A DNA stretch of 64,000 nucleotides from an uncultured Gammaproteobacteria bacterium (GCA_964599625.1 CAZRGC010000003.1:3816-67815), one strand, 5' to 3'; positions 3,186 through 43,182 are shown, counted from the first letter of the stretch. The notes: generated from the letters alone by a model not told the origin. Translations and numbers: made by a program.

Positions 3186-3310
3186 TATTCAAATTATCAT
3201 TATATATTCATATCACAACAATGTCAGTTTCCAGGCTTTGTTTTTGGTGCAGTCTATTACCACACCTGTTTCCTGGCGTTTGCAGACAATATGCTCTAAA
3301 ATACAGGGTA

Positions 3311-3718
3311 ATGAAATACAAATTACTATTGGCAACTGTAGCCTTCACATTTTCTTTCATGTTCAAACTGGTAGTACCTACTACAGCCCTAGCTGTTAGC
3401 CAGGATGTTACCTGCAACGGAAATCAAGGTGTCGATACAGCAATCGGATGTTTGAACGTTCTGTCCACTCCCGAAGACTTTTTGGGGCAGCTTTTGGGTT
3501 GGGCTGTGGGAATTGGTGGAGGCCTTGCGTTTATCTTGATTGTATATGCAGGATTTATGATCATGACGGCCGCAGGAAATCCGGAAAGACTCAAGGCTGG
3601 TCAGGAGCTTTTGACTTCGGCAATTTCTGGTCTTATTCTTTTGATCTTCTCAATTTTTGTACTCAGATTCATTGGAATTGATATACTGGGACTTAACAAC
3701 TTTGGTTTTGGCGGATAA
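3311..3718 (+). CDS. T4SS pilin-like protein (VirB2/TrbC-like), paralog 1
   Basis: Start re-set to the ATG at 3311, preceded by AGGG. Signal peptide MKYKLLLATVAFTFSF...ALA, then two hydrophobic helices flanking GNPERLKAGQELLTSAISGL. This architecture is shared with 7 downstream paralogs. Confidence 0.6.
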   Translation: MKYKLLLATVAFTFSFMFKLVVPTTALAVSQDVTCNGNQGVDTAIGCLNVLSTPEDFLGQLLGWAVGIGGGLAFILIVYAGFMIMTAAGNPERLKAGQELLTSAISGLILLIFSIFVLRFIGIDILGLNNFGFGG

Positions 3719-3720
3719 AT

Positions 3721-4035
3721 ATGGCAGCACTAAATCTTGATTCAATTGAAAGCAGGGGTCTTGGCACATCCGTTCCCGGAACTCCCGGAGATATAATCAA
3801 TGCAATCCTTCCGTATGTATTTGCTTTTGCGGGAATTGGGCTTTTGGTGTTTTTAATGATTGGAGGGCTTCAAATGATGACGGCCAAGGGTGATCCCAAA
3901 GCAATAGAAGGTGCACAAGCAAAAATAACAAGCGCCCTTATTGGCTTTTTGATTATCATAATTTCATATGTTCTAGTCCAGCTGTTGACTAAAGTGCTTG
4001 GCCTTGGTTCTCTGGGAGGTGTTTTTGGTCCATAA
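3721..4035 (+). CDS. T4SS pilin-like protein, paralog 2
   Basis: 104 aa with a TM-loop-TM architecture and the loop motif KGDPKAIEGAQAKITSALIGF. Confidence 0.6.
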   Translation: MAALNLDSIESRGLGTSVPGTPGDIINAILPYVFAFAGIGLLVFLMIGGLQMMTAKGDPKAIEGAQAKITSALIGFLIIIISYVLVQLLTKVLGLGSLGGVFGP

Positions 4036-4039
4036 CAAT

Positions 4040-4363
4040 ATGAAAATTGATCAACTTTTTCTTGACGGGGTTCCCTCTAAAGCTACATATAGTAGTCTGA
4101 CTGGCATTTCCGGTCTGGTTACACTTTTTGTTAATATCATTTTTGCAATTGCTGGAATTGTCCTTTTGGTCTACTTTGTTGGCGGAGGTTTGGCCATGAT
4201 CAGCAGCGCCGGCAAAAACGATCCCCAAAAAGCAGAACAGGCAAAAAAAACATTAACAAGCGCCGTTATTGGTTTTGTTATAGTTTTTGTCTCCTATTGG
4301 GTAGTCTCACTTATTGGACAAATAATGGGTATCCAAATACTCCAAGGTCTTTTTGCTAGGTAA
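4040..4363 (+). CDS. T4SS pilin-like protein, paralog 3
   Basis: Start re-set to the ATG at 4040 (MKIDQLF...), 4 nt after the previous stop. Loop motif AGKNDPQKAEQAKKTLTSAVIGF. Confidence 0.55.
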   Translation: MKIDQLFLDGVPSKATYSSLTGISGLVTLFVNIIFAIAGIVLLVYFVGGGLAMISSAGKNDPQKAEQAKKTLTSAVIGFVIVFVSYWVVSLIGQIMGIQILQGLFAR

Positions 4364-4412
4364 CAAGCCTCGGACTTGTATTTTTGTCTGTGCGGGTTGT
4401 AAAATTAGCAAA

Positions 4413-4742
4413 ATGCCGAATTTTGGACAAATCAGACCCCCTACTACAGCATTTTCCGGATCGGATGCGGGTACATCAATCGGAAGATTAATTCAGCTTG
4501 GCTTATCGCTTCTGATTGTTGGCGCAGGGCTTTACGCCCTATTCAACTTTGTGATTGCTGGTTATTCTTTTTTGTCCGCAGGTGACGATTCCAAAAAGAT
4601 TTCTGCGGCTTGGGCCATGATCTGGCAAACAGCTCTTGGATTAGCTGTTGCTGCGGGTGCCTTTGTAATTGCTGCTATATTTGGCAAACTCTTGTTCAAT
4701 GATTTTGGATTCCTGTTGAACCCACAAATACCCAACTTATGA
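4413..4742 (+). CDS. T4SS pilin-like protein, paralog 4 (divergent)
   Basis: Start re-set to the ATG at 4413 (MPNFGQ...). Two hydrophobic helices with the loop motif AGDDSKKISAAWAMIWQTALG. Confidence 0.5.
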   Translation: MPNFGQIRPPTTAFSGSDAGTSIGRLIQLGLSLLIVGAGLYALFNFVIAGYSFLSAGDDSKKISAAWAMIWQTALGLAVAAGAFVIAAIFGKLLFNDFGFLLNPQIPNL

Positions 4743-5113
4743 CGCCAGACAATCACATTGCAGTAAGCCTTGCCCCAGCAGGTGGGTTTAAGGGTCTTGG
4801 TACAAGCTCACTTGCTAATCCGGGCAACGATGCCATAAATATCTTTGCAAACTTTCTTTCTTCCGTTATTGGCCTCATGACAATCATTGCATTTATTTGG
4901 TTTACGTTCAGATTTATTACCTCGGCGATTCAGCTCATGTATGCCGGAGGAGACAAGCAACGCTATGAAACAGCAAGAGAGCAAATGAAATATGCAATTA
5001 TCGGAGTTGTGGTCGTTGTGGCTGCAATATTTATTATCAACCTGGTTGGAACATTCATAGGCATTCCAAATATATTGGATGTCGCGGGTATGTTTGAACT
5101 TATAACTCAATAA
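4739..5113 (+). CDS. T4SS pilin-like protein, paralog 5
   Basis: ATGA start/stop overlap with the upstream gene. Loop motif AGGDKQRYETAREQMKYAIIGV. Confidence 0.6.
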   Translation: MTPDNHIAVSLAPAGGFKGLGTSSLANPGNDAINIFANFLSSVIGLMTIIAFIWFTFRFITSAIQLMYAGGDKQRYETAREQMKYAIIGVVVVVAAIFIINLVGTFIGIPNILDVAGMFELITQ

Positions 5114-5461
5114 ATGAACAACTTAATAGCGGCAGCATCTGGAGTAATCGGAAACCCTGCTTTGGGGGCACTCGAAAACAACACTGGCGAAAGCTTTTTC
5201 CAAAAGGCTATCCCCGCTTTTGCCAGTATGGCATTTTTGATTGCCTCGATCATATTCTTTTTTATGATAATTACCGGATCGATCCAATGGATCTGGTCAA
5301 ACGGCGACAAGCAGGCTTTGGAGACTGCAAGAGCCAGAATAACCAACGCTCTGATAGGTATGGTGCTTTTGTTTGCCGTATTTGCATTAATCAAAGTAAT
5401 AGAGACATTCTTCCACATACATATTCTGACTCTTGACATAGCGGCATTGAGGATTCGATAA
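5114..5461 (+). CDS. T4SS pilin-like protein, paralog 6
   Basis: Loop motif SNGDKQALETARARITNALIGM. The C-terminal TFFHIHILTLD is nearly identical to paralog 7. Confidence 0.6.
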   Translation: MNNLIAAASGVIGNPALGALENNTGESFFQKAIPAFASMAFLIASIIFFFMIITGSIQWIWSNGDKQALETARARITNALIGMVLLFAVFALIKVIETFFHIHILTLDIAALRIR

Positions 5462-5468
5462 TATACAT

Positions 5469-5798
5469 ATGAACAATCTTTTGGCACAGATTAATTTACA
5501 ACCGGGCGAAGGAACCCAGTTTGCTCCTTTGGCCAAACTCACCATTCCTGGACTTATTTCTGCACTCATCAGACTCACAGTAGTTGTTGCAGCCATAGTA
5601 TTTTTCTTTATCTTGGTAATTGGTGGTATTAAATGGATTGCTTCAGGTGGAGACAAAGCTCAAACAGAATCAGCCAGAAACCAAATCACAGCCGCTTTAG
5701 TAGGACTCGTAATAGTTTTCGCAGCTTGGGCTATCGTTGCACTTATCAACACATTCTTCCACATCGATATATTCTCGCTCGTTATCCCCTCAGTCTAA
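5469..5798 (+). CDS. T4SS pilin-like protein, paralog 7
   Basis: Loop motif SGGDKAQTESARNQITAALVGL and C-terminal TFFHIDIFSLV, pointing to a recent duplication of paralog 6. Confidence 0.6.
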   Translation: MNNLLAQINLQPGEGTQFAPLAKLTIPGLISALIRLTVVVAAIVFFFILVIGGIKWIASGGDKAQTESARNQITAALVGLVIVFAAWAIVALINTFFHIDIFSLVIPSV

Positions 5799-5835
5799 TT
5801 TCTACTCAAAATAGTCTTGGTATAGCTTAAATTCT

Positions 5836-6144
5836 TTGTTTGTAATAAAATTATTGGGTATGAACGGAATTGCAACCATTGCCGACTTGGGAACAATTTT
5901 TTCTAATATTGTTAAGTCGTTTTTGACATTTGCAGGTATAGTGCTTTTTGTTTTTCTTTTGGTTGGTGGGTTCAGATATATTACTTCTGGGGGTGATCCA
6001 AAAGCAGTTGACGCAGCGCAAAAGACAATTACTTACGCAATTGGCGGCCTTGTTGTTATACTTCTTTCCTTCCTGGTTCTGGTGCTTATTGGGAACATAA
6101 CAGGTGTCACATCAATCACCGAATTCAACATCATGCTTAGATAA
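5836..6144 (+). CDS. T4SS pilin-like protein, paralog 8
   Basis: Loop motif SGGDPKAVDAAQKTITYAIGGL with a TM-loop-TM architecture. The start may be the internal ATG at 5860. Confidence 0.55.
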   Translation: MFVIKLLGMNGIATIADLGTIFSNIVKSFLTFAGIVLFVFLLVGGFRYITSGGDPKAVDAAQKTITYAIGGLVVILLSFLVLVLIGNITGVTSITEFNIMLR

Positions 6145-6156
6145 ACACAATGACAG

Positions 6157-8832
6157 ATGCAAAAATCAAGGCCAAAATGCCTCAATATTCATACAGCAAG
6201 TAAAGCTTTCTACTCTTTACTGGTCCTAGTTTTGGGTGTGTTTGTTGTGGCTGTAATGCTTCAAATAAAAACAGTTATGGCAGAGGATGCTATTCCAAGG
6301 CCAGGAAACGTTCCTTGTGAGACTGAAAAAAACCCAGAATACAGCAGCGGCCGACCTTATCAGGCTTCTCCTTGTGGGGATGCGCCCAAAACTTATTGGT
6401 GCGGTAATGCAGTTGTTATATATCTAAACACAGTTAAGTGTCCCTATAACGGCAGTCCCACTTGCACACCGACGGTAACACATTACGAAAAGAAAATAGC
6501 TGTCGAAATGCTTGATGCAGAACTCCCAATCATGGGAAACACCGAATTAACATCTAATAGCGTTAATGGCACGGGTACAATGGATGACGGAACCAAACTA
6601 AACGAATATATGAGCTGGTACCTTAACGGGGTAAACGACAAGGCCGAGTACCCCGAAAGCAGCATAGATCAATCAGTTAATATGTCCGGACCCTTAAGAA
6701 GGCTTTTACCCGGTGTGATACAAGACGCAGCAAGAGTAGAAATCATCAAATCCCCCGACGGAGACACATCAAACGTTGACGATGAGACCGGCGAATCCAC
6801 TCCAGAAAAAATGAATCACAACAATATTGTGGTTTGTGCAAAAGAAGGTGGTGGTGGTCTTCTTGGTTGGATAGTGGATCTTTTTAATGTAGGGGCAACT
6901 ACTCCGCTTGAATGCTACAAGGGGGGCGGGTCGGGAGCACAAGGTGACGTTTATAGATTGAAGGACTGGAACGGCAATTTGACAATACTTAACGCTTTGT
7001 CGAATACAGTAGTACGCACAGCAGTAAACGCCTACCAAGTTTTGTTTCCGTTTGCCTCACTGGGTGAGATAGAAGCATCCATTGGAAACCATTGGAATCT
7101 CAGACGCCCTCCCCTTCCCTGGGACGACGGTACCGGTAAACCATTCGCAAGAAACGTTGACTATCAAAAAGCATACTACGAGTGGCGGGGGCAAACCTGT
7201 ATGATTATTCCGGTTATTGATAGACTTGCCTGTTTCGAAAACCTTCTAGTTCCAAATAAATATGCAGATTTGTTCCCATATATTCCTCTTGCAAACACCA
7301 GAGATATACCCGGAGCACACACTGTCCTTCTTGCTCATGTAAGTGCGGCAAAAGCAGAAATATTGGAGTCTGATTACCAAATAATCAAGCCGGCTTTTCG
7401 CTTGTGGATTCCACACGCGGCTGAAAATTTTGAACTCACAAGTCTTCTTAAAAAGACTTTTGTTCCCAAAGCTAAAGACGGTGCTAGCTCTACAGCCCCA
7501 GCAGCAAGCCTGAGCGATGTCGAAATAAACAACGCGCCATGCAAGATATTAAATTCGAGAAGTAATCCGGGCGACGATGTAAACTTTGAAAATCCAAAAA
7601 AATGGATTGAGGTGGATGTGCAATACGATGTTGGAGAAATTCAATGTAGTGAGCCGCATGAAGAGTGCAAGGAAGACACAAATCCCAGTAGCCCCACTTA
7701 CGGACAAACTATTTGCAAAATGGTCGCAACCTGTGAGTCAGAAGTTTATGCAACAATACCCACGGTAGGCAAGACTCCATACGCAGATGAGATTTGGAAT
7801 AACTCCGTGGCAGGCCCGGACTCCGTGTTTAGAAGAATTTACCCCAAAACAGGTGCCAACGCCCCTGTTTCGTGTATTGCCGACCTTCCGGCCGAATCCA
7901 AAGCAACATATAAAATCACAGATCCAAGCAGCGAAGGGATCAGACTTACACAAGTAATTCTTCCTGATGATAGCCGCATGGGATCGTTTGCCAACAAGAC
8001 GGAGTCTTTGGAAGCAAAAGTGTTTTATCCCCATTACGGAGGTGTATTGGAATACTTTTTAAACGGTATCCAAACAGCGCTTAGACCCCAAGGTTATAGC
8101 GATTCGCAACCAATGAGTGGTCAATCATGCAGCAACATTCAATGTGGCGAGCTTCCCGATCTTCCCAAAGCATCGGGTTCTTGCCAACTTGGCGGTGTCA
8201 GTTCCCGTGTGGGTAAAATTCCAAAAGCTTTAAGCGACATAATTTCTGCTGCCGCACAAACATACAAAGTCCCCCCCAACCTATTAATCGGGCAGATGTT
8301 TGGTGAAGGACTTTTTAATCCGGGAAGATACGAGTGGACCGAGGAAAATGTTAAAAACTGGGCAACGTGTACAAAAATTCCGGGATGTAATGAGACAGGA
8401 GATGATCACTTTATGGGATTCAACGGAACAGTTTTTGAACGAACAGTCCCTAAAATAAAAGCAGATTTACAAAAAATCGATCCCAGCAGGAAAACATTCA
8501 GTCAGTGTAATCTTCTGGATGCAATTTATGCTGCCGCTTATAATCTTCACGACAGTGCTGACGGCGGAGGCGGGCTTCCCGCGACATGTTTCGGAATAAA
8601 ACTTAGTGCACCAGTACCATCATCCTGCTCCTGGACTGATGAACAATACGAATCAGCAATCAAAGTTTACGAGAGTGGTTATACAAGTATGTGTATGACG
8701 GTTGAAAACGGTTGTGCAATAGGAGGCTTGGCAGCTGCCTGCCCAGCAGGCGATACCTGCGAAACAATAAGCAATAGATATTCAAGTCCAAGCCACAACG
8801 CCTGTGTTTGGGACGTGGCACACGGCAACTAA
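6157..8832 (+). CDS. Large Cys-rich secreted/membrane-anchored protein with a C-terminal lytic-transglycosylase (SLT family 1)-like domain; putative VirB1 analogue
   Basis: N-terminal signal-anchor helix. More than 40 Cys. The C-terminal region reads AAQTYKVPPNLLIGQMFGEGLFNP ... HFMGFNG ... AAAYNLHD, which parallels SLT motifs I-III (E-S/GxxNP, GLMQ, AYNxG). Confidence 0.5.
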   Translation: MQKSRPKCLNIHTASKAFYSLLVLVLGVFVVAVMLQIKTVMAEDAIPRPGNVPCETEKNPEYSSGRPYQASPCGDAPKTYWCGNAVVIYLNTVKCPYNGSPTCTPTVTHYEKKIAVEMLDAELPIMGNTELTSNSVNGTGTMDDGTKLNEYMSWYLNGVNDKAEYPESSIDQSVNMSGPLRRLLPGVIQDAARVEIIKSPDGDTSNVDDETGESTPEKMNHNNIVVCAKEGGGGLLGWIVDLFNVGATTPLECYKGGGSGAQGDVYRLKDWNGNLTILNALSNTVVRTAVNAYQVLFPFASLGEIEASIGNHWNLRRPPLPWDDGTGKPFARNVDYQKAYYEWRGQTCMIIPVIDRLACFENLLVPNKYADLFPYIPLANTRDIPGAHTVLLAHVSAAKAEILESDYQIIKPAFRLWIPHAAENFELTSLLKKTFVPKAKDGASSTAPAASLSDVEINNAPCKILNSRSNPGDDVNFENPKKWIEVDVQYDVGEIQCSEPHEECKEDTNPSSPTYGQTICKMVATCESEVYATIPTVGKTPYADEIWNNSVAGPDSVFRRIYPKTGANAPVSCIADLPAESKATYKITDPSSEGIRLTQVILPDDSRMGSFANKTESLEAKVFYPHYGGVLEYFLNGIQTALRPQGYSDSQPMSGQSCSNIQCGELPDLPKASGSCQLGGVSSRVGKIPKALSDIISAAAQTYKVPPNLLIGQMFGEGLFNPGRYEWTEENVKNWATCTKIPGCNETGDDHFMGFNGTVFERTVPKIKADLQKIDPSRKTFSQCNLLDAIYAAAYNLHDSADGGGGLPATCFGIKLSAPVPSSCSWTDEQYESAIKVYESGYTSMCMTVENGCAIGGLAAACPAGDTCETISNRYSSPSHNACVWDVAHGN

Positions 8833-8876: not shown

Positions 8877-10676
8877 ATGCCTTTCTTTCATAAAACTCAC
8901 ATGTTTTTCAAAAAGTTTTTAGTTTCGTTTATGGCTGCCTGGATACTCGTTTTGTCCGTTGCGCCTTTTTCAATAGCAGCAGCTGCCACAGCCACCCCAG
9001 CCCCAACAGGAACATGGTATAACTCAAGTTTTCAGGATTGGTATTCCAAAGTCTACGACGACAGCAATCAAAGCGAAATTTTTGGCGAAAGATATACAGC
9101 CGCACAAGTACAGTGGGTTGTTTACGGACTTCTATCGTTCCTTGTAAACCAGACCAGCAACCAAAAACTTCTTAGTTGTTTGTTCAAGAATTCAGCAAAC
9201 CTGAACGCATGCGCAAGCTTACTTACCTATTCAGAAAAAGATCTTCAAGAACTCGCAAACAGACCCAAAGTAAAAGAGCCATCACTTGCCAGTCTTGTTT
9301 TTTCCAAAGAAAGGTCTTTTTCCGGAATTAACTATGTAAGGGAAAAGGTAGATAATTTTAGTCTTGTCCCCGAAGCTCATGCCCAAACAGTTGGTTTTGG
9401 CTTTAACGCCCTTAAGCCTGTTCAGGCAATGTGGCAAACTTCAAGAGACTTGGCATTTGGACTTTTTGTTTTGGCTGCGATCGTTTTTGCATTCATGATC
9501 ATGTTTAGAGTAAAAATATCTCCACAGGTGGTAATTTCGGTTCAAACGGCTCTTCCCAAGCTTATAGGTGCGTTGATATTGGTTACCTTCTCCTACGCCA
9601 TTGCAGGGTTTTTGGTTGATTTAATGTATGTAGTTTACGGATTGGTGGCGCTTTTGGGTAAAGGCTTTATTCCCTTTGGTGGCGCTGGTGTTTCTCCCGC
9701 AACAGTTTTTGAATTTATGACAGCAGGAAGAGTTGGTGGAGCAGGTGCAGGAATTGAATTAGGGCTCATGGGGCTTTTGTTTATATATCTTGTACTCCTC
9801 CCCATTTCGTTTGTAATAACACTGTTTTTGACGATTGGTGTTTTGGGAGCAGCTGTAATTGGACTTGTTGGAACAATTTTGGCACCTCTTTTTGCAGGCC
9901 TGGGAACAATAATGGCCTTGGTTGCAATTGTTTTGGTAATCATTTTGATCATAGTAATTATTTGGCAATTGGTAAAAATCATTTTCGGACTCCTTAAGGC
10001 ATACACAAACATTATTCTTTTGACAATTTTCGCGCCTGTGCAAATAGTTGCGGGTGTTTTTATTCCAAGTCTTGGTTTTGGTTCTTGGCTTAGAAGTTAT
10101 GTAACCAACTTGGGAATATTTGTATTAACAAGTGTTCTTATATTTTTCTCTTTTGTATTTTTGGAGCAAGGAGTGGCCCTCGCATGGGAAGGACTTGGTA
10201 GCAACATCGGCGCAGGGATACTTTCGTTTATTTTTGGTCAATCAACAATCGCAAATCTTGGAGGTTTCTTTGTAAACAATTCTGCATGGCCACCCCTTTT
10301 GAGTTCCACGGCCTCCACAGGCGGCGGCACAGGTCTTTTGATGCTTGGTGTTAGCTTTGTACTCTTTACGCTAATTCCTAAAGCCACAGAGGTGTTGCAA
10401 GGCCTTATGAGTGGCAGACCGTTTGCATACGGAACCGCAATCGGTGAGGCTTTTGGGCCGGTTGCACCATTTGCTGAGTATGGGAAGGGTGCTGCAATGA
10501 GAGCTGCCATCAGAAAGGGTGTTCAGATGGACAACGAAGGCAGATTGCCAAGCGGTGGTATGTGGACATATTTGAAAGAGGGTCTAAGAGATGCCGCAGA
10601 GCAACAAAGAATGTCTACTGTAAGAGGAAGAGACACAGACAATACTTCCGTCAGACCTCCAAGCGAGAGAAGATAA
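8877..10676 (+). CDS. Polytopic inner-membrane protein (at least 8 TM), VirB6/TrbL-like candidate
   Basis: 599 aa with a signal-like N-terminus, many long hydrophobic helices with Gly-rich packing, and a C-terminal charged tail. It sits between the lytic enzyme and the ATPase genes, the usual VirB6 position. Confidence 0.4.
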   Translation: MPFFHKTHMFFKKFLVSFMAAWILVLSVAPFSIAAAATATPAPTGTWYNSSFQDWYSKVYDDSNQSEIFGERYTAAQVQWVVYGLLSFLVNQTSNQKLLSCLFKNSANLNACASLLTYSEKDLQELANRPKVKEPSLASLVFSKERSFSGINYVREKVDNFSLVPEAHAQTVGFGFNALKPVQAMWQTSRDLAFGLFVLAAIVFAFMIMFRVKISPQVVISVQTALPKLIGALILVTFSYAIAGFLVDLMYVVYGLVALLGKGFIPFGGAGVSPATVFEFMTAGRVGGAGAGIELGLMGLLFIYLVLLPISFVITLFLTIGVLGAAVIGLVGTILAPLFAGLGTIMALVAIVLVIILIIVIIWQLVKIIFGLLKAYTNIILLTIFAPVQIVAGVFIPSLGFGSWLRSYVTNLGIFVLTSVLIFFSFVFLEQGVALAWEGLGSNIGAGILSFIFGQSTIANLGGFFVNNSAWPPLLSSTASTGGGTGLLMLGVSFVLFTLIPKATEVLQGLMSGRPFAYGTAIGEAFGPVAPFAEYGKGAAMRAAIRKGVQMDNEGRLPSGGMWTYLKEGLRDAAEQQRMSTVRGRDTDNTSVRPPSERR

Positions 10677-10743: not shown

Positions 10744-13700
10744 TTAAAAATTCTTCTTTACGTTGGTTATCGCCGCTGACACAGATTCCTGCTGATCTGT
10801 ACCATGCTTAATTACAGACCTAACAATTCTTTCACCTTGCATTACTGTGAGCAAGGCAACTTGAGCTGATGTGCCAGGATAATTGTGAACCTTCCTTACT
10901 TTTGTTGGCATGTCCAAAAGAACATTGATCCATTTGGTAACATCTTGCCTTTGGAAACTAGCAAACAACTTGTCAATTTCTGTTTCAGTTGGAGTTTTAC
11001 CCATGAGTCCAGCGCTTTTAATTGCTGCCAACATCTTGTTTTGTGCAAACGAAGATGCACGCAGCACGCCGTCTGACCAATTAAAAATTCTTCCACCAAG
11101 CCTACCTCTTTTACCCAACTCTTTATCAGCTGTTCCGGAAGGCTCGCCCAAGAAGTGTTTTTCGTACTCGGGTTGTGTAGATCTGTTGAATTCGTGTGGT
11201 GTAACAATTGGACCAAGCCATCTTTCCATTTGGTCATGAGAGACTCTAATGTAGCTGTATTTGTATCTGTCCATATTCTCCCAATTTAGCTTTGAATTTC
11301 TCTCTCCACGGAGCCTTCTGTGCCAAACACTCACGCTTCTACCGTCCACAGTTCTGGCTGATGGAGAATCCAAAGTCATACTTCTCCAAAAACCAAGAGG
11401 TAACGAGGTCGGCATGAACATAGGCATTGTCAAATAGTCACTCTTGGGATTTCCGGGTTCTGCCAAGAATGGTGTCATGTAAGACCACATGTTGTTGTAA
11501 ATAAAATCGCGGACTCTTGTGTCAAATTTTCCATAATATTGCTCTTGGATACCATTTTTTCCTTTCATATACACTTTTCTAGCTACCATCTTCTCTAAAG
11601 GATTGTCATCAGACAGGATCCCTCCACGTGCTGTAATTTTTCCATCTAGACCGATGCCCAACCTCCTCAAAAGATCAGGGTCGTTCTTTGCTATTACCTC
11701 AACTTTTGGCCTCCAATAAGGTGGTTGCTCGAGCCATTTGTCCCTATATTCACCTATTGTTGGAAACACCAAAACACCAGAGCCCCTGGTTTCTGCCATT
11801 ATGTCGTAGTCGATCATGTGTCTTGCCAGATAAACAACCGTTGTTACATCATGATTTTCATAGATACTCCCCATCTCCGATCTCCTTTTTACTCCAAGTT
11901 CGGCAGCAGTTTTACCCTCTCCTGTAATCTCTTTCCATTCACCTTCACTTACATTCTTTTTGTAAACTCGCTGCTCAACATACTCATCGCCATTTGAGAG
12001 ATCGACAACTACTTTGAAATTGGGGTTTGAAGCCAACGCCCTCCAAACAACTTCATCTGTTTTCTTTTTGTAAGTTTTTCCGCCACCCAGAATCACATAC
12101 TCTTCACCGGTTCCTGTTTCTGTAAGAATTGGTTTCTTTTTAACCTCTTCGTAATTCCAAGTCCAACCGAGATCTCCACCGGAAAGAACACCTTTTTCAA
12201 TATTTATTGTGCTTTTTATAACTTGTTCAGCAAGTCTTGCATATGGCGATTCTGTGTCGTCTAAGGCTTCCCATTGTTCTGATCTCTGAGCAGCTCTATC
12301 TTTTAGCTCGCCAGCCAAAGCTTTAATTCTTGCAAGTCTTACAGCAGGATTTCCTACAGCCATAATTTCCTCCATTTTTTGCTCATAATATGCAGCATTT
12401 AGAACCAGTTGCTGCATTCTTGATTCAAAAGCTCTTATAGCCAACTCGTCGTTACGGGGCATACAAAACGGATTTAATATTTTCTCTTTTACAGTAATCA
12501 TTGTTCCGTCCGCAGCTTTGTATTGGAATTCACCAACTTCACTCACTGTACCGTCAGCATTAACTGTTTCCATCGCCATGACTTCCTGTAAAAACATAAA
12601 TGTTTCAATGTTTTCTACTACCGCATACCTCTCACCCTCTTCTTTGTCTGCGTCGTTTTCGGTCCAACTACCACCATCGAGAAGATCCAAATTCTTCTGT
12701 CCCACAGCAACGGCTTTATATAGCCATTTTATTGACGCATCTTGTTGTTCAACTGCAACCTCTCGCATACCAAGTCTTTCTACTGGATTACCATTCTCAT
12801 CTCTTGATTGTCTGAGGAGTCTGTCAGGCCTTTTTGAAAGTGTCTTTTTGACAAGTTCGCGCTGTTCATCCGTAAGATCAGCCCCCCTAAGTTTGTCTTT
12901 ATAAAGCCTAATAAAATCTTGAGCCACAAGTTCTGTGTGCGGGCTTCTTATCCACTGAAGCATGAGTTCTCCGTCAAAGTACAGTTCAAAAGCTGGCCCC
13001 ATTCCTTCTACAACCCTGGCGTTGGCATTTGCCCACAACATATCTCTTTTGAGCATCTTAAGAAGTGCTGTGGTTTCAGGATTTTTTGCTCGATCGGTGT
13101 TTCTGAGCTTGTCAGTAACCTGTTCCAAAGCTTGTTCAAAATACTGCATCGCATACCTGGAGTCGTATGGGTATGGGTTTTTGAGATGCTCAAGATATCT
13201 GTTTAATCCTCCCAACTCGTCCATGGTTGTCTGGATGATGTTTTCGTAAGCCTCAGCTGCTCTTTCTCTTGCTCCTTCGAGCCTCTTTTCTCTCTCGTTC
13301 GGTTCCTCAATCAAATAATCTGCAACCTCGGCAGCAAATTTATCCCCACTTTCGACAGCGTCCCAATCATCTCCACCCTTGGAACCCTTGATCATAACCT
13401 TTTCGTTTTTAGCTTTTTTGTCATCAACTGCTTTTCTTAGTTCTTCTTGTTCGGTTTTGAGAGTGTCTCTCGCATCCTGAAGGCTAGGGCTTGCCTCAAC
13501 TTCAACCCAATCAGTACTCTGTTCAATCTTGTTCCTTAAAAGTCTTACTTTAAATATCATTTGATCCAAGTCTCTGGTGTCGTTTTCAATAAGCCCAATC
13601 TGCTCGGCTGCCATAAGGAATTTGGGCATATATGAATATTTTCCTTCCTCGTTCCTCCTCGCCAATCTCATTTCATGCTCCATTCTCTCTTTGTTGGGGT

Positions 13701-13941
13701 CTTTATCATCCTCTTTTCCATGCTGCATTCTTATATCGGGAAGGTTTGCTTTCATCATTGGCTGAGACTCGGCAAAATTCCTGGCTGCATCGACTTGAGA
13801 TTTACCCAAAGCAACAGCATTGCTGTCGATAGACGAAATTTGATTAGCCGCAAAGTCTTTGGCCTGGGTACCCCCCAGATTCATCATTGCCCTAACTGAG
13901 GGTGATATGTTTGGATCGTTTGGAACAGATTCTCTTGTCAT
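10744..13941 (-). CDS. Large (1065 aa) soluble hypothetical protein, no recognisable domain
   Basis: Long uninterrupted ORF with no signal peptide or TM helix and charged/acidic-rich composition. It is divergent to the T4SS operon and convergent with the VirB6-like gene. Confidence 0.5.
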   Translation of the reverse strand: MTRESVPNDPNISPSVRAMMNLGGTQAKDFAANQISSIDSNAVALGKSQVDAARNFAESQPMMKANLPDIRMQHGKEDDKDPNKERMEHEMRLARRNEEGKYSYMPKFLMAAEQIGLIENDTRDLDQMIFKVRLLRNKIEQSTDWVEVEASPSLQDARDTLKTEQEELRKAVDDKKAKNEKVMIKGSKGGDDWDAVESGDKFAAEVADYLIEEPNEREKRLEGARERAAEAYENIIQTTMDELGGLNRYLEHLKNPYPYDSRYAMQYFEQALEQVTDKLRNTDRAKNPETTALLKMLKRDMLWANANARVVEGMGPAFELYFDGELMLQWIRSPHTELVAQDFIRLYKDKLRGADLTDEQRELVKKTLSKRPDRLLRQSRDENGNPVERLGMREVAVEQQDASIKWLYKAVAVGQKNLDLLDGGSWTENDADKEEGERYAVVENIETFMFLQEVMAMETVNADGTVSEVGEFQYKAADGTMITVKEKILNPFCMPRNDELAIRAFESRMQQLVLNAAYYEQKMEEIMAVGNPAVRLARIKALAGELKDRAAQRSEQWEALDDTESPYARLAEQVIKSTINIEKGVLSGGDLGWTWNYEEVKKKPILTETGTGEEYVILGGGKTYKKKTDEVVWRALASNPNFKVVVDLSNGDEYVEQRVYKKNVSEGEWKEITGEGKTAAELGVKRRSEMGSIYENHDVTTVVYLARHMIDYDIMAETRGSGVLVFPTIGEYRDKWLEQPPYWRPKVEVIAKNDPDLLRRLGIGLDGKITARGGILSDDNPLEKMVARKVYMKGKNGIQEQYYGKFDTRVRDFIYNNMWSYMTPFLAEPGNPKSDYLTMPMFMPTSLPLGFWRSMTLDSPSARTVDGRSVSVWHRRLRGERNSKLNWENMDRYKYSYIRVSHDQMERWLGPIVTPHEFNRSTQPEYEKHFLGEPSGTADKELGKRGRLGGRIFNWSDGVLRASSFAQNKMLAAIKSAGLMGKTPTETEIDKLFASFQRQDVTKWINVLLDMPTKVRKVHNYPGTSAQVALLTVMQGERIVRSVIKHGTDQQESVSAAITNVKKNF

Positions 13942-14484: not shown

Positions 14485-15618
14485 ATGGAACAACATCCAA
14501 TTCCACAACAAATAAGTTCCTATCAATTCCGTTTGGTGGGAGATATGACCCTCAAACAGTTTTTCCAACTTGCGGGTGGATTTTTGGTGGCACTTATTTT
14601 TTATTCTTCCCCACTTATTGGAATTATCAAATGGCCTTTTGTAATTGTATCCGCACTTCTTGGTGTCGGTCTTGCTTTTTTGCCTTTGGAAGAAAGGCCG
14701 TTGGAAAAATGGATTTTTGCTTTTTTCAAAGCAATATATGCACCAACCGAATTTTACTGGGAAGAAACAAAAACACCTGTTAAATTTTTTATGGATGAGC
14801 CCGCAAGCAGTGTGAATGCAAACACAGCAGCTCCACAAGAAAAAGCCTTGCAAGACTATCTTTCTGTTGCAAATCAAAGAACTGGCTCATCTGCAAAAAT
14901 GGAAATGGCTGAACAGGGATTTTTAGCAACGCTTACCGGAATATTTACAGGAGTGGTTTCGCCTGTAACAACTGGCATACCTCCAGCACCCGCACAGTCA
15001 GCGGCTCCAACCCCGGCAGTCACACCCTTAACCATGCCAAAAGAACCCATTAGCGCACCACAGGCACCCGTTGAACAAAAAGAAATACAAATACCCCAGA
15101 CTGCTCCTATAAAAGTTGTCTCCAATATACCTCATTTGGTAATCGAAGAAAGAAAAGCGGATCCACTAGCACCAGAACCACAAATAACAACACACCAAGT
15201 TGCACCAACTATGGCGGGTGAGGAAATGATTTCCACCAAACAAGCTTTGTTCTCAATCGACGCTGCCCCACCAAGCCCTCCAACAATTCCAAACGTTGTT
15301 GTTGGACAAGTGGTAGATGAAAATAGAAGAATAGTCGAAGGTGCGATTATGGAAATACGAGACTCTGGCGGCAGACCAATACGAGCACTAAGAAGTAACA
15401 AGGCTGGTCATTTTATAACCGTTACTCCACTTGAGATAGGTAAATACGACGTTTTAACAGAAAAAGATGGCTTCGATTTTACAGCAATATCTTTTGAAGC
15501 AACGGGAAACTTGATTCCTCCAATCCTTGTTCAAGGCAAACATAGTACTCAGCAGCCTGCGCAGGTTACCCAGGCTCCACCAATAGTTTCTGCAAACCCT
15601 GTAGCAACGACTAACTAA
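14485..15618 (+). CDS. PrgI/VirB3-like membrane protein fused to a Pro-rich linker and a C-terminal beta-sandwich (CarboxypepD_reg-like) domain
   Basis: N-terminal YQFRLVGDMTLKQFFQLAGGFLVALIF plus a second TM helix resembles PrgI-family (VirB3 analogue) proteins that precede VirB4. Middle region is PA/PQ-rich. C-terminal VVGQVVDENRRIVEGAIMEIRDSGGRPI...GHFITVT...GKYDV follows the transthyretin-like fold pattern. Confidence 0.45.
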   Translation: MEQHPIPQQISSYQFRLVGDMTLKQFFQLAGGFLVALIFYSSPLIGIIKWPFVIVSALLGVGLAFLPLEERPLEKWIFAFFKAIYAPTEFYWEETKTPVKFFMDEPASSVNANTAAPQEKALQDYLSVANQRTGSSAKMEMAEQGFLATLTGIFTGVVSPVTTGIPPAPAQSAAPTPAVTPLTMPKEPISAPQAPVEQKEIQIPQTAPIKVVSNIPHLVIEERKADPLAPEPQITTHQVAPTMAGEEMISTKQALFSIDAAPPSPPTIPNVVVGQVVDENRRIVEGAIMEIRDSGGRPIRALRSNKAGHFITVTPLEIGKYDVLTEKDGFDFTAISFEATGNLIPPILVQGKHSTQQPAQVTQAPPIVSANPVATTN

Positions 15619-15624: not shown

Positions 15625-16332
15625 ATGGCATTAAACCCACCAAACTTATCAAAACTTCCCAAAATTCCATACCTTTCCATTCCGGATAAACCTATTACTG
15701 CAACCAGCCAAGACCATGTACCAATTGCAGACATTACAAATGATATTTTAATTTACAAAGACGGAGGCGCCGCACTTGTGATGGAGTCAACATCTCTCAA
15801 TTTCGGACTTTTAAGCGAAAAGGAGCAACAGGCCGTAATCGCAGCATATGCAGCAATGATTAATTCGCTTTCTTTCTCTGTTCAGATTGTTGTAAGAACA
15901 TCCAGAAAGGACATAAGCTCTTATTTGTCATTTTTGGATGAACAAGCCAAAAAACTTACACACCCCCTCTTGGTGAGGCTTATGGCCAACTACAGAGGTT
16001 TTATTACCGAGTCTGTTAAGAAGAAGAACGTTCTTGGGAAAAGATTTTTTGTGATTTTGTATCTTTCGCCATTAGAACTGGGGGTCGGCAAATCAGTACA
16101 AACACTTACTAAACGTGGCGGGCCACTTCCCTACACAAAATCTTATGTTATTAAAAAAGCTAAGATTACTTTGTATCCCAGGCGGGATCACTTGGTTCGC
16201 CAGGCAGGGCGTCTTGGTATAAAATTCAGGCAACTTACAACACCGGAGCTTGTCAATCTTTTTTATACTATCTACAACCCCGAAAGACCCGCAGTTAAAA
16301 AAGAACCCGAGGTTGTAATGGACAAAAAATAA
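15625..16332 (+). CDS. VirB4-family protein, N-terminal segment (split gene or frameshift)
   Basis: ADITNDILIYKDGGAALVMESTSLNFGLLSEKEQQAVIAAYAAMINSLSFSVQIVV matches the conserved N-terminal VirB4/TraC/PrgJ motif (D.I..KDG....LEV...NF.L.S..EQ). It ends at a poly-A tract 4 nt before the next ORF, which is in a different frame. Confidence 0.5.
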   Translation: MALNPPNLSKLPKIPYLSIPDKPITATSQDHVPIADITNDILIYKDGGAALVMESTSLNFGLLSEKEQQAVIAAYAAMINSLSFSVQIVVRTSRKDISSYLSFLDEQAKKLTHPLLVRLMANYRGFITESVKKKNVLGKRFFVILYLSPLELGVGKSVQTLTKRGGPLPYTKSYVIKKAKITLYPRRDHLVRQAGRLGIKFRQLTTPELVNLFYTIYNPERPAVKKEPEVVMDKK

Positions 16333-16336: not shown

Positions 16337-18376
16337 ATGAATATCAAACTACCATTCATGAAACAGCAGAATCCGGTACCAGCCTCTGCTTTGGGTGTTG
16401 ACCCTATGCAAAACACTCAACCACCAATGGTGCTACAAACACCACCCACAATCGTTCCACCTACTACAAACCCTCCCGTCGCGCCACAAACACCAACAAC
16501 TCCTCCACCTACAAATCCATCGTTACAAAACCCACAAACCTCATTTGCACCGACACCTGTGCAACAAACACCTCCAAACACACAAGTTCAACCAACCCCT
16601 ACTGCCGTAAAGACTGCTAAACAAAAATATACAAACCCGGGTTTGGCTGTAACCCAAGGAGCAAATGTGTTGGATGTTATTGCTCCGCAATTGGTTGAGG
16701 AGGACTTTGATTACATAAAAATAAACGATGTTTATTTTCGAACCATATTTGTTGGTGGCTATCCCAGATTTGTCGCCCCGGGTTGGCTTGAGCCTGTAGT
16801 TAATTTTGATTCAAGCCTTGATATTTCTTTTTATGTTTATCCGGTAGATGGAAAATCTGTTCTGGACGATCTAAGGAGAAAGATCGCAGAAATGGAAGCA
16901 GAAATATCAACAGACATCGAACGCGGAAAAATAGTTGATCCTTCTACCTCAGCCAAATTGGAAGATGCCAGAGCTCTTCAGGAACAACTTGTTAAAGGAA
17001 TAGAACGTTTTTACGAATTTTCTTTTTACATAACAATTCCGGCAAATACTGTCGATGAACTAAACCATGTTACAAAACAAATTGAATCACAGTTGGGATC
17101 GCTTTTGATTGTTTCCAAACACGCTCTTTTAGACCAAGAGTCAGGATTTTTGTCTACCGCACCCTTTGGAATGGACAGATTAAACATCACAAGGAATATG
17201 GATACGACTTCTGTAGCAACAACCTTCCCTCTTACCTCTACAGAACTTTCCAGCGACCGCGGAGTTTTGTACGGTATAAATTCTCAAAACGAGTCCTTCA
17301 TTATTTTTGACAGATTTAGTCTCCAAAACAGTAACATGGTTATCTTTGCAACCTCAGGTGCCGGAAAGTCATTTTTTGTTAAGTTGGAGGCTTTAAGATC
17401 TTTGATGACAGGAACCGAAGCAATAATTCTTGATCCTGAAAACGAATACAAACCACTCGCACAAGCGGTTGGTGGTGAATATATTTCTTTCTCCTATAAC
17501 TCCGATGCCAAAATCAATCCTTTTGATCTGGCCCAGATACGTGAAGAGGGCGAGAACCAGCTTGGGTTGAAAATTTTATCCTTACATTCACTTATGAAAG
17601 TTATCATGGGACAAATATCTCCCACCCAGGACGCACTTTTGGACAGAGCACTTGTTATGACCTACAGAAACAAAGGAATCACCATGGACCCTGATACCCA
17701 AGGAAAAGAACCCCCTCTTATGGAAGATCTATACAAAACCCTTATTGGAATGGAGGTTCCAGATGCACTTGATTTAGCAGCACGTATCGAGAAATTTGTA
17801 AGAGGAAGTTTTGTGGGAATTTTTGATAAACAAACCAACATCAATCTAAACAATCCTTTTACTGTTTTCTCAGTTAAAGACATGCAAGATGCAATACGCC
17901 CGATTGCAATGTTTATCATCCTTGATTACATTTGGACTCGCGTCAAAAAGGACATTAAAAAACGAGTCCTTTTAGTGGATGAGGCTTGGCACATGATGAG
18001 ATATCCCGACACCGCTCAATTCTTGTGGAGCGTTGTCAAAAGAGCACGTAAATATTATCTTGGGCTTACAACAATCACCCAAGACGTAGAGGACTTCTTG
18101 GCACAAGACATAGGCAAGGCAATTGTCACCAACAGCTCCATGCAGGTGCTTCTGAAACAATCACCTGCTGCAATTGATAAAATCGGGGAGGTGTTTTATT
18201 TGAGTCAGGGAGAAAAACAGCTCCTTCTTGCAGCCAATGTCGGAGAGGGAATATTCTTTGCAGGACCACACCATGCCCCAATAAGAGTGGTTGCCTCGGA
18301 AGAAGAAAATAGATTGATAACAACCAAGCCAGAAGAGGTTGCTAAATTTAACCCAGCCGCGTATAACACCAAATAA
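16337..18376 (+). CDS. virB4: VirB4/TraC/PrgJ-family T4SS ATPase (middle and ATPase domains) with an N-terminal Pro/Thr-rich linker
   Basis: YFRTIFVGGYPRFVAPGWLEPVV (conserved VirB4 N-domain motif), Walker A IFATSGAGKSFFV, Walker B RVLLVDEAWHMM, and a downstream TTITQDVEDF motif. Confidence 0.8.
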   Translation: MNIKLPFMKQQNPVPASALGVDPMQNTQPPMVLQTPPTIVPPTTNPPVAPQTPTTPPPTNPSLQNPQTSFAPTPVQQTPPNTQVQPTPTAVKTAKQKYTNPGLAVTQGANVLDVIAPQLVEEDFDYIKINDVYFRTIFVGGYPRFVAPGWLEPVVNFDSSLDISFYVYPVDGKSVLDDLRRKIAEMEAEISTDIERGKIVDPSTSAKLEDARALQEQLVKGIERFYEFSFYITIPANTVDELNHVTKQIESQLGSLLIVSKHALLDQESGFLSTAPFGMDRLNITRNMDTTSVATTFPLTSTELSSDRGVLYGINSQNESFIIFDRFSLQNSNMVIFATSGAGKSFFVKLEALRSLMTGTEAIILDPENEYKPLAQAVGGEYISFSYNSDAKINPFDLAQIREEGENQLGLKILSLHSLMKVIMGQISPTQDALLDRALVMTYRNKGITMDPDTQGKEPPLMEDLYKTLIGMEVPDALDLAARIEKFVRGSFVGIFDKQTNINLNNPFTVFSVKDMQDAIRPIAMFIILDYIWTRVKKDIKKRVLLVDEAWHMMRYPDTAQFLWSVVKRARKYYLGLTTITQDVEDFLAQDIGKAIVTNSSMQVLLKQSPAAIDKIGEVFYLSQGEKQLLLAANVGEGIFFAGPHHAPIRVVASEEENRLITTKPEEVAKFNPAAYNTK

Positions 18377-43104: not shown

Positions 43105-43182
43105 CAGTTAAATTTTCAATTAATAAAATAGCACTCAGTTAGTTTGAATGCTAGAAAGGTCTGAGTTAAAAACAAACTTAAA

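Follow-up and report, generated by a model that had tools for sequence, protein, structure and literature searches.

The window analyzed here, a single 64-kb stretch of DNA, carries eight tandem genes whose products are old subunits, each conserved in its own right, and not the outcome of recent duplication or a stock of exchangeable copies. The favored account, which has a somewhat better than even chance of being right, is that they make up a fixed, ancient set of differentiated PF18895 subunits of a T4SS, of which one major and seven minor kinds would build a heteromeric pilus or stalk. To our knowledge, a filament has not been seen for any patescibacterial T4SS. The host appears to be an ultra-small, Woesebacteria-like patescibacterium (CPR) of the Microgenomatia. 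Among named genomes, MAGs of Candidatus Woesebacteria and Microgenomates are its nearest relatives, and the label "uncultured Gammaproteobacteria" carried by two relatives is probably a mislabel.

Layout, paralogy and family assignment

A first-pass annotation of this DNA had placed eight tandem pilin-like genes at 3311-6144, and all eight are present there as consecutive, co-oriented plus-strand ORFs of 94-135 aa. Their start codons were refined by ortholog alignment, and the array and its candidate promoters are as follows:

3297..3302, + strand: TAAAAT, a -10-like hexamer 8 nt ahead of the p1 start codon; candidate promoter P1 of the array
3311..3718, + strand: p1, pilin paralog type 1, 135 aa; PF18895 38.2 bits
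3721..4035, + strand: p2, pilin paralog type 2, 104 aa; PF18895 30.4 bits; monophyletic ortholog group
4040..4363, + strand: p3, pilin paralog type 3, 107 aa; PF18895 42.8 bits
4413..4742, + strand: p4, pilin paralog type 4, 109 aa; no Pfam match, paralog HMM 23.0 bits
4739..5113, + strand: p5, pilin paralog type 5, 124 aa; PF18895 41.2 bits
5114..5461, + strand: p6, pilin paralog type 6, 115 aa; PF18895 21.0 bits, E 3.5e-4, sub-threshold
5433..5462, + strand: P7, candidate promoter TTGACA-N18-GATAAT; sigma-70-type consensus match
5469..5798, + strand: p7, pilin paralog type 7, 109 aa; PF18895 33.9 bits
5860..6144, + strand: p8, pilin paralog type 8, 94 aa; PF18895 36.2 bits

Ortholog alignment favored ATG 4040 over TTG 3998 for p3 and ATG 5860 over TTG 5836 for p8, and ATG 4413 was preferred to TTG 4353 for p4. 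From p1 to p8, the junctions measure +2, +4, +49, -4, 0, +7 and +61 nt, with the start of p5 overlapping the stop codon of p4 (ATGA). Five of the seven junctions thus show the tight or overlapping spacing described earlier, the +49 and +61 nt gaps being the exceptions. The next downstream gene begins +12 nt after p8, and the paralog HMM found no ninth pilin copy across the whole 64-kb window.

The eight genes are true paralogs, and their similarity far exceeds hydrophobic composition. BLASTP matches 19 of the 28 paralog pairs at 23-41% identity; the best pairs are p6/p7 (38.7% identity over 119 aa, E 3e-20) and p2/p3 (E 2e-16). In global alignment, p1 is 16-26% identical to the other paralogs. 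A loop motif, (S/A)GGD(P/K)...A...IT.A.(I/V)G, is conserved across the paralogs, along with an invariant Gly. With an HMM built from the other seven, p4, which diverges most, reaches 23.0 bits, compared with a maximum of 9.7 bits for 1000 shuffles and -0.6 bits for the reversed sequence. By the BLASTP pairs, the motif and these controls, the paralogs align with one another well beyond hydrophobicity.

Hydropathy profiles have two TM-like peaks in each paralog, and p1 has a signal peptide in addition. In p2-p8, a hydrophilic N-tail of 16-34 aa precedes the two TM helices, and throughout the array a polar hairpin loop of 23-32 residues lies between the predicted TM windows. The AF2 model of p7 is a helical hairpin (H26-58 and H63-97, pLDDT 78.6); together with the charge bias of the paralogs, it speaks for the topology proposed below. 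The shared signal/TM-loop-TM architecture claimed for all eight is thus borne out in the two TM segments and the loop motif, whereas a cleavable signal is found only in p1.

The claim that p6 and p7 are recent duplicates did not hold up. They are mutual closest paralogs with only 39% amino-acid identity and share no identical stretch of DNA longer than 14 nt, and their duplication is ancient; the ortholog groups described below point the same way. No recent duplicates or gene-conversion tracts were found within the array, nor any near-identical DNA between paralogs.

Assignment to the T4SS-pilin family, also proposed earlier, rests on Pfam PF18895 (T4SS_pilin), which has a gathering threshold of 26.6 bits. 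Matches occur in seven of the eight paralogs, p4 being the exception, and six (p1, p2, p3, p5, p7 and p8) pass the threshold and can be taken as formal members. The other two, p4 and p6, are divergent but clear members, tied to the family by their paralog-HMM scores; for p6, the HMM built from all eight paralogs (p6 itself included) gives 111.9 bits. Furthermore, PF18895 is present in the precomputed annotation of 120 of 120 homologs among the matches listed.

The PF18895 paralogs are VirB2-like in architecture. At the sequence level, a Pfam scan listed PF04956 (TrbC/VirB2) for none of them at E<=1, and hhalign gave probabilities of 0.5-0.65% for A1 and A2 against seven genuine VirB2/TrbC proteins, in alignments that place a 7-residue gap in VirB2 opposite the polar loop of the paralogs. 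A PDB profile search returned no pilin and no PDB homolog, and PDB sequence and fold searches returned generic hairpins only. The Mycoplasma ICE pilin-like family NF045849 is matched by p7 (E 4.6e-5, 23 bits) and p1 (E 2.6e-4, 20.6 bits), both under its cutoff of 40.

Conservation of the octet and its secretion locus

The first-pass annotation had suggested a search of relatives for variation in paralog count. The count is fixed: of the 42 related arrays holding the complete set of types, 41 consist of exactly eight genes, arranged 1-8. Seven loci (L001, L002, L003, L009, L010, L012 and L014) gave eight HMM matches each, and 33 further metagenome arrays also hold all eight types. L013 gave nine matches and has one extra type-1 copy, and the L068 contig carries an extra type-7-like copy with its own promoter. 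In the phylogeny called for by the first-pass annotation, a neighbor-joining tree of six genomes, all eight positions form monophyletic ortholog groups; in arrays outside the tree, the best match of each gene is the type expected at its position. Positional orthologs in L002 and L003, the most distant tree genomes where compared, are 45-75% identical, while the 891-aa protein encoded next to the array is 38-44% identical in these genomes. Identity among p4 orthologs is 57-92%.

Selection was estimated against the closest relative. Synonymous sites are saturated in three of the eight genes, and dN/dS is 0.02-0.12 in the five with estimable dS. The genes tested are under strong purifying selection and are therefore non-redundant.

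The array is embedded in a T4SS locus, of which the following components lie downstream:

6157..8832, + strand: 891-aa protein, no recognised domain; N-terminal membrane anchor or signal, 29 Cys, one TM-like segment
8877..10676, + strand: VirB6/DotA-like polytopic membrane protein, 599 aa; fold match; candidate pilin assembly platform
14485..15618, + strand: PrgI (VirB3)-like membrane protein; PF12666 24.1 bits, cutoff 27; two TM segments
15625..16332, + strand: TrsD/TraC-like protein, kin of the VirB4 N-terminal domain; NF041427 TrsD E 5e-7, below cutoff
16337..18376, + strand: VirB4-family ATPase, T4SS signature protein; NF045971 CD1110-family 372.6 bits, cutoff 325; PF19044 102.9 bits

The 891-aa protein has no match in Pfam, NCBIfam or PDB sequences, and its gene always directly follows the array in relatives. 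Genes at the PrgI-like position in relatives also match PrgI, TrsD-like orthologs match PF26593 TraC-like, and the VirB4 and TrsD-like proteins of the window additionally match the Mbov_0397 model. About 10 kb separates the array from the VirB4 gene downstream of it, both within a single block of conserved synteny, with dnaN and dnaA 4-5 kb beyond virB4, and the same layout recurs in every related genome whose locus reaches far enough to show the neighbors. The genes are thus not generic membrane proteins unlinked to a T4SS but neighbors of VirB4, TrsD-like, PrgI-like and VirB6/DotA-like genes. The locus is a chromosomal, dnaA-proximal, Gram-positive-type (MPF-FATA-like) T4SS. A Pfam scan of 48 proteins in the 64-kb window, including all 46 ORFs of at least 150 aa, gave no relaxase or T4CP family match. 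The cargo of the machine is probably not conjugative DNA, because no relaxase or coupling protein is encoded nearby.

Type 7 and type 1

Two members of the octet stand apart. The candidate promoter P7 sits at the 3' end of p6, and its -10 element ends 6 nt ahead of the p7 start codon. No other exact consensus match exists in the 64-kb window, where 0.10 would be expected by chance; other near-consensus promoters in the window precede only groES, L25, the rpmH side and the SpoIID operon. Each of 13 related loci has exactly one such element. More broadly, the P7-type element TTGACA-N18-RATAAT has 88 instances, always directly upstream of type 7, with the -10 element 0-13 nt from the type-7 ATG in 77 of them. 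In most genomes, the -35/-10 element overlaps the C-terminal codons and stop codon of p6, so part of its conservation may be coding; it is kept in 17 loci where it is wholly non-coding. Because this invariant promoter directly precedes the gene, P7 suggests that type 7 is a highly expressed major subunit translated from a leaderless or short-leader mRNA, both strength and leaderless start being deduced from the E. coli-type consensus. No terminator was found after p7, and P7 would therefore raise expression of p8 and the downstream genes as well, which weakens the inference that it serves type 7 only.

The type 7 protein is itself well conserved. It is 100% identical to that of L001 despite 14% nucleotide differences, and p7 is 72-89% identical to 44 of 45 aligned database cluster representatives and 67% identical to the remaining one. 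Type 7 is the most conserved type (73% mean identity), a figure inflated because the survey loci were picked by their similarity to type 7.

Type 1 is the only one of the eight with a Sec signal peptide, which is always present in its orthologs. The p1 protein has three hydrophobic segments: its Sec-type signal peptide, with cleavage between MKYKLLLATVAFTFSFMFKLVVPTTALA and VS, is followed by a short two-Cys ectodomain and then by the two-TM hairpin. Type-1 orthologs range from 130 to 282 aa in length, the variation coming from a Cys-rich insert. Upstream of type 1, all seven aligned genomes have a TAAAAT hexamer 7-11 nt ahead of the start codon, and 17 of 28 metagenome loci have TA(A/T)AAT at a distance of 4-14 nt. 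We infer that this hexamer, P1, is a candidate array promoter that would give a short leader.

Assembly models and known systems

In the favored account, each paralog would insert as a helical hairpin with both termini outside and its conserved polar loop facing the cytoplasm, and a VirB4/VirB6-like machine would extract the paralogs and build a single heteromeric pilus or stalk from them. VirB6 serves as the platform for pilin assembly in the R388 system. Type 7, expressed from its own invariant promoter as a leaderless or very short-leader mRNA, would be the major, most abundant subunit, and types 1-6 and 8 would be minor subunits for initiation, base or tip. Type 1 may be the surface-exposed, lineage-variable subunit, since it alone combines a Sec signal peptide with a variable Cys-rich ectodomain. 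A heteromeric filament is compatible with the data, and co-assembly of the eight proteins is putative. More tentatively, and probably not correct in full, the structure could be a type-IV-pilus-like T4SS appendage in which type 7 is the major subunit (leaderless mRNA), the seven others are obligatory minors that replace the missing VirB5 and VirB7-10, and type 1 is a Sec-exported, Cys-rich and lineage-variable tip or adhesin. Such an appendage would be a heteromeric conjugative-type pilus, and we know of no characterized T4SS with that architecture.

Unlikely, though with several observations behind it, is a machine that makes no filament. Its hairpins would never leave the cytoplasmic membrane but would line the translocon there as a hetero-oligomeric ring or stalk, partly replacing the missing VirB8/9/10-type scaffold. 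Homology to the filament-forming VirB2/TrbC proteins is undetectable, fold searches brought up generic hairpins without a specific match to solved conjugative pilins, and the polar loop of 23-32 residues is longer than that of VirB2. Eight different small subunits kept as a fixed, stoichiometric set also resemble a membrane complex, and Gram-positive-type T4SSs are generally without pili (PMC10633639). However, the paralogs have conjugative-pilin architecture and adjoin a protein with a VirB6-like fold, and type 1, with its Sec signal peptide and Cys-rich ectodomain, suggests that some of the structure is exposed. Moreover, a candidate strong promoter for a single subunit suits a polymer better than a ring of fixed stoichiometry.

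The antigenic or host-range repertoire that had first been proposed, with interchangeable pilins expressed differentially or swapped, is improbable. Variation of this sort has been put forward for the trwL arrays of Bartonella and the virB2 arrays of Anaplasma and, as a speculation, for Patescibacteria. The low within-array identity of 23-41% is as in the published arrays (PMC12102498). P7, as an internal candidate promoter, would permit differential expression; the type-1 ectodomain varies in length, type 1 is duplicated in one genome, and L068 has its additional type-7-like copy with a promoter. Against this stand one gene per type in the same order in 41 of 42 full arrays, dN/dS of 0.02-0.12 in the five genes estimated, a type 7 protein identical to that of the closest relative and the lack of recent duplicates or gene-conversion tracts. 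The array thus does not show lineage-specific amplification with variable copy number, the hallmark of the Bartonella Trw and Anaplasma arrays. In addition, the S. epibionticum pilin array is described as essential at the array level, which fits non-redundancy (PMC10633639, PMC12857230).

That these are generic small membrane proteins or TRAP permease subunits, unrelated to secretion and alike only by hydrophobic composition, is effectively refuted, even though JGI names several homologs [quoted passage not shown] and no PDB homolog was found, by motif-level similarity far above the shuffle and reversal controls, by the PF18895 domains in all 120 homologs among the matches listed, by synteny with VirB4, TrsD-like and VirB6-like genes wherever the locus reaches far enough, and by the weak match to NF045849.

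The favored heteromeric pilus or stalk can be set beside several known systems. Like VirB2/TrbC (PF04956; T-pilus, R388 TrwL), the paralogs have an N-terminal leader or tail, two hydrophobic helices and a polar loop, and are encoded with VirB3, VirB4 and VirB6 homologs; unlike VirB2/TrbC, they have a loop about 7 residues longer with its own GGD(P/K) motif, no signal peptide in seven of eight, and no significant sequence or profile similarity to that family. The Mbov_0395 family (NF045849) likewise consists of small two-TM proteins encoded with a monoderm VirB4, although p7 and p1 score below its curated cutoff. In the Mycoplasma ICE, the Mbov_0395-family gene is single-copy and mobile, not a chromosomal octet. 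Type IV pili and T2SS pseudopili pair one strongly expressed major subunit with several conserved minors that are non-redundant and encoded alongside it, analogous to the putative division between type 7 and the other types; however, their class III signal peptide, prepilin peptidase, fold and assembly ATPases are unrelated, and there is no homology.

Tandem arrays also occur in other host-dependent bacteria. Bartonella Trw (virB2/trwL) and Anaplasma/Ehrlichia have up to about 8 tandem VirB2-type genes per T4SS locus (as cited in the pilin passages of PMC12102498), and in this they resemble the array of the window. Those arrays consist of genuine TrbC/VirB2 in diderms and arose by lineage-specific amplification tied to antigenic or host-cell variation, whereas here copy number and order are fixed and VirB2 sequence homology is undetectable. 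Epibiotic growth of Southlakia epibionticum ML1 requires a Gram-positive-type T4SS cluster that lacks a relaxase and contains pilin-like genes (Wang et al. 2023 Cell, PMC10633639; PMC12857230). As in the window, these genes form a run and are divergent in sequence but similar in structure; the cluster differs in having six of them and in belonging to a cultured member of the class Saccharimonadia with Tn-seq data (PMC10633639).

Patescibacteria themselves have published VirB2 arrays, which the first-pass annotation overlooked in implying novelty from the single VirB2 gene of most T4SS loci (PMC12102498, PMC10633639, PMC12857230). As described in the pilin and chromosomal-context passages of Quinonero-Coronel et al. 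(2025, Microb Genom, PMC12102498), these arrays comprise 2-11 pilins near a patescibacterial MPF-FATA-like virB4, are enriched in Microgenomatia and Saccharimonadia, have a mean within-array identity of about 25% (maximum 54%), and belong to T4SS loci that often lie near dnaA without a relaxase. The array of the window agrees with them in its tandem PF18895 genes, gene number, low identity, dnaA proximity and lack of a relaxase. The "non-pilin genes" that interrupt the HMM-defined arrays of that study correspond here to the divergent types 4 and 6. However, those passages portray the arrays as highly variable and suggest adaptation to host strains, whereas the Woesebacteria-type octet is fixed, its members being orthologous one to one. 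P7 and the type-1 features are absent from the passages on pilins and chromosomal context and from the supplementary figure legends (PMC12102498). Measured against these parts of the paper, pilin arrays of this kind are already known for Patescibacteria, and the fixed, apparently ancient octet, P7 and the details of type 1 are new.

Eight related pilin-like genes

The first-pass annotation, made from the sequence alone, described eight consecutive small pilin-like genes at 3311-6144 on the forward strand. All eight are confirmed as open reading frames, here with starts refined against orthologs:

3311-3718 (+), p1, 135 aa
3721-4035 (+), p2, 104 aa
4040-4363 (+), p3, 107 aa
4413-4742 (+), p4, 109 aa
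4739-5113 (+), p5, 124 aa
5114-5461 (+), p6, 115 aa
5469-5798 (+), p7, 109 aa
5860-6144 (+), p8, 94 aa

The tight spacing claimed for these genes holds at five of the seven junctions (+2, +4, an ATGA overlap, 0 and +7 nt) and fails at the remaining two, which have spacers of 49 and 61 nt. In every one of the proteins, two strongly hydrophobic segments flank a polar loop with a conserved motif, (S/A)GGD(P/K)...A...IT.A.(I/V)G, plus one invariant Gly. Among the eight, only p1 has a classical Sec signal peptide. Types 2-7 (a type being the ortholog group of the window gene of that number) have no signal peptide and instead begin M-x(1-3)-L-L-A-(Q/D/E), then I-x-L-x-P, as at 5469-5490 of the window. 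This L-L-A-(Q/D/E) motif resembles the signal-peptidase site of VirB2, which lies between A and Q, and could be a processing or recognition site.

The paralogs align beyond their hydrophobic composition. BLASTP gives alignments for 19 of the 28 pairs at 23-41 % identity, the best being p6/p7 (E 3e-20) and p2/p3 (E 2e-16). The gathering score of the Pfam T4SS_pilin family PF18895 is exceeded by p1, p2, p3, p5, p7 and p8, while p6 stays under the threshold (21 bits, E 3.5e-4) and p4 has no match to this family. Against an HMM of the other seven paralogs, p4 nevertheless scores 23.0 bits, compared with a maximum of 9.7 bits for 1000 residue shuffles and -0.6 bits for reversed p4 with its hydrophobic blocks kept. 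The eight proteins are thus PF18895 members, two of them divergent, and this membership and the T4SS gene neighbours support the earlier reading of the genes as T4SS pilins. A six-frame HMM scan of the 64-kb window found no ninth copy. The recent duplication proposed for p6 and p7 is contradicted by their 39 % residue identity and by identical DNA runs that never exceed 14 nt. A DNA-level check of the paralogs for recent duplicates or converted genes likewise rejected both.

A fixed octet within a conserved locus

Directly 3' of the array lie two large genes on the same strand:

6157-8832 (+), 891-aa protein, N-terminally anchored, 29 Cys
8877-10676 (+), 599-aa polytopic membrane protein

Profile searches and PDB sequences revealed no known domain in the 891-aa protein, and an exact-sequence lookup recorded no identical entry; it could be a partner at the surface or one that acts on the cell wall. 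In relatives it always sits immediately 3' of the array. The AlphaFold model of the 599-aa protein, built on a 59-sequence alignment (pLDDT 74.6), predicts a VirB6-like fold encoded two genes downstream of the array; an identical protein is carried by one 5-kb Logan contig only. Further 3' follow PrgI/VirB3-like and TrsD/TraC-like genes, a CD1110-family VirB4 (372.6 bits against a cutoff of 325), and then dnaN and dnaA, and the remainder of the window consists of housekeeping genes. No relaxase or coupling-protein family matched among the window proteins scanned. Two other large proteins have no convincing domain match: a 1065-aa protein (10744-13941, minus strand) without TM segments, and a 942-aa protein (18379-21207, plus strand) with three TM segments and 12 Cys. 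The sole match for either is a faint zinc-metallopeptidase motif in the latter (E 0.0016, 18 bits against a cutoff of 250). Where the window has the 1065-aa gene, the T4SS block of relatives has a large gene of 759-976 aa on the minus strand.

Related loci were gathered through the 891-aa neighbour, exact-protein look-ups and a metagenome scan with a type-7 profile. Among named relatives, Woesebacteria and Microgenomates MAGs are the closest. The closest relative, L001 (CAZRJH010000002.1), and the most distant genome compared, L002 (CAZSXP010000002.1), carry a Woesebacteria-type locus, yet bear the title 'uncultured Gammaproteobacteria'. Database names of the pilin homologs include 'TRAP-type C4-dicarboxylate transport system permease small subunit' for several and 'magnesium-transporting ATPase' for others. 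These public labels, of the two MAGs and of the homologs alike, look wrong.

All loci share one layout, with SmpB, a protein of about 625 aa, DUF5657, a bPH-like protein and SpoIID (minus strand) 5' of the array, and proteins of about 890 aa, about 590 aa and (minus strand) about 900 aa, then PrgI-like, TraC-like and VirB4, on its 3' side. An HMM scan found exactly eight pilin genes in each of seven relatives (L001, L002, L003, L009, L010, L012 and L014) and nine in L013. In the phylogeny that the first-pass annotation had suggested as a check, built by neighbour joining from 48 proteins of six genomes, each array position is monophyletic. Bit-score matrices are strongly diagonal, and when genes are typed by their best hit, all genomes show the order 1-2-3-4-5-6-7-8. 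All eight types are present in 33 metagenome loci. Not every array counted here represents an independent lineage. Types 4 and 5 seemed to be swapped in L051 and L054, an artefact of the way stop-to-stop segments had been sorted. In L002 and L003, identity to the window is 45-75 % for positional orthologs and only 38-44 % for the adjacent 891-aa protein.

Paralog number, whose variation the first-pass annotation had proposed to check in related genomes, is nearly constant at eight. Only two departures were seen: L013 (6853-8143) has a second type-1 gene, no other type being duplicated in a full array, and L068 (901-1633) has an additional type-7-like gene with its own copy of the promoter that precedes type 7. 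Foreign genes are inserted within otherwise intact arrays in L012 (7785-8141), L014 (7759-8124 and 10362-11244) and L008 (1837-2310). They include a 23S_rRNA_IVP-family gene between types 1 and 2 and minus-strand genes between types 7 and 8, and insertions were seen only at these two junctions, those with promoters or long spacers before or after.

Between L001 and the window, synonymous sites are saturated; five genes allowed an estimate of dN/dS, with values of 0.02-0.12. For p7 the nucleotide sequences differ by 14 %, yet the proteins are 100 % identical. The fixed octet and this purifying selection disfavour the earlier suggestion of antigenic variation. Rather than pooling variants, the Woesebacteria-type array encodes a fixed set of eight distinct subunits.

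Type 7, type 1 and the elements before them

A candidate promoter, P7, lies directly before p7:

5433-5462 (+), P7, TTGACA-N18-GATAAT, ending 6 nt before the p7 ATG, within the 3' end of p6

P7 is the only exact match in the window to TTGACA-N17/18-RATAAT (0.10 expected). Each of 13 related loci has the element exactly once, and 78 of 80 metagenome loci have it; the other two are cut off at a contig end. TTGACA-N18-RATAAT is present in every related locus (L001-L094) that possesses the upstream DNA. The spacer is 18 nt in 85 of 88 instances; 65 instances have AATAAT as the -10 element and 23 have GATAAT. In 77 of the 88, the type-7 start codon lies 0-13 nt past the -10 element. Since this distance is mostly 6-13 nt, a leaderless or near-leaderless type-7 mRNA is implied. 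No Shine-Dalgarno sequence is visible before type 7 in the sequences shown, and AGGA is present in six loci with a 28-nt leader. In most genomes P7 runs across the final codons of p6 and its stop codon. Where p6 stops before the -35 element, as it does in 17 loci, P7 is still intact, so the constraint acts on the DNA. A terminator was sought after p7 and not found.

Besides P7, window sites within one mismatch of the full promoter consensus lie before groES, before the gene for ribosomal protein L25, on the rpmH side of dnaA and before the SpoIID operon. At 43101-43184 (+), just upstream of groES (start 43184) and groEL, a near-consensus TTGACA-N17-TAAAAT precedes a CIRCE-like inverted repeat, AGCACTC-N9-GAATGCT. 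The SpoIID-facing element, CTGACA-N17-TATAAT at 3199-3227 (-), has the conserved form TGGTATAAT in relatives. It is divergent to a TAAAAT hexamer 8 nt before the p1 ATG (3297-3302, +), which is kept in all seven genomes aligned and occurs as TA(A/T)AAT before type 1 in 17 of 28 metagenome loci.

Conservation, too, is highest in type 7, with a mean pairwise identity of 73 % against 48-67 % for the others, in a survey that is biased because its loci were chosen by type-7 similarity. Type 7 is likewise the most conserved in unbiased comparisons with L001 and L003, and in L002 type 1 is marginally above it (61.1 % vs 60.6 %). Type-1 orthologs always have a Sec signal peptide, and a Cys-rich insert between this peptide and the hairpin accounts for their range of lengths, 130-282 aa. 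The insert is very variable in length (L003 4900-5454, L009 7480-8178, L010 7395-8141, L017-L093), and p1 has a short form with two Cys.

A proposed assembly and its place among known systems

The p7 model is a helical hairpin (residues 26-58 and 63-97, pLDDT 78.6). Net charges in p1-p8 are -4 to +1 for the N-terminal tails and 0 to +2 for the loops. The p1 signal peptide would place the p1 N-terminus outside the cell, and an N-out, loop-in, C-out topology, the same as that of VirB2, fits the charge distribution. Because all eight types are kept in order, they may have eight non-redundant roles in one assembly. Judged from the sequences, type 7 would be the bulk subunit, given its dedicated, putatively strong promoter and extreme conservation, and type 1 the exposed one, given its exported, variable ectodomain. 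VirB6 is the platform for pilin polymerisation in the R388 system, and the VirB6-like protein encoded two genes 3' of the array is a candidate assembly platform here. A serious rival is that p1-p8 form a membrane-embedded hetero-oligomer and no filament. The predictions for the array can be tested by metatranscriptomics, proteomics, complex structure prediction and cryo-ET.

p1-p8 are not demonstrably TrbC/VirB2 family members: PF04956 did not match the paralogs at E<=1, and when seven genuine VirB2/TrbC proteins taken from MPF_T plasmids were compared with them profile to profile by hhalign, probabilities stayed below 1 %. A PDB sequence search with the pilin profile returned nothing meaningful, PDB fold searches were uninformative, and tblastn of p7 against 72,556 plasmids gave no match. 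Outside the CPR, the nearest relative found by sequence is the 'pilin-like' family NF045849 of Mycoplasma ICEs, with scores below threshold.

The window's array belongs to the system that Quinonero-Coronel et al. described in 2025 (PMC12102498). That T4SS is Patescibacteria-specific and MPF-FATA-related, frequently found beside dnaA/dnaN and mostly without relaxase, and its arrays have a mean within-array identity of 25 %. Wang et al. (PMC10633639) described divergent pilin-like genes within the T4SS cluster of Southlakia epibionticum, where a 2025 review counts six divergent VirB2-like pilins (PMC12857230). With such matching arrays in print for Patescibacteria, p1-p8 are members of a published pilin-array class, and the window brings no new kind of system. 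Few machines have been shown to be essential to the epibiotic life of Patescibacteria, and the T4SS with its pilin cluster is one of them (PMC11665869, PMC12857230); the fixed octet, the promoter and the VirB6-like protein offer a testable structure for the question of what this machine is. In the Woesebacteria-type lineage, the array has an obvious candidate major subunit in type 7, a candidate exposed variable subunit in type 1 and a putative VirB6-like platform, a kind of protein of which profile searches had found few in this class of bacteria.
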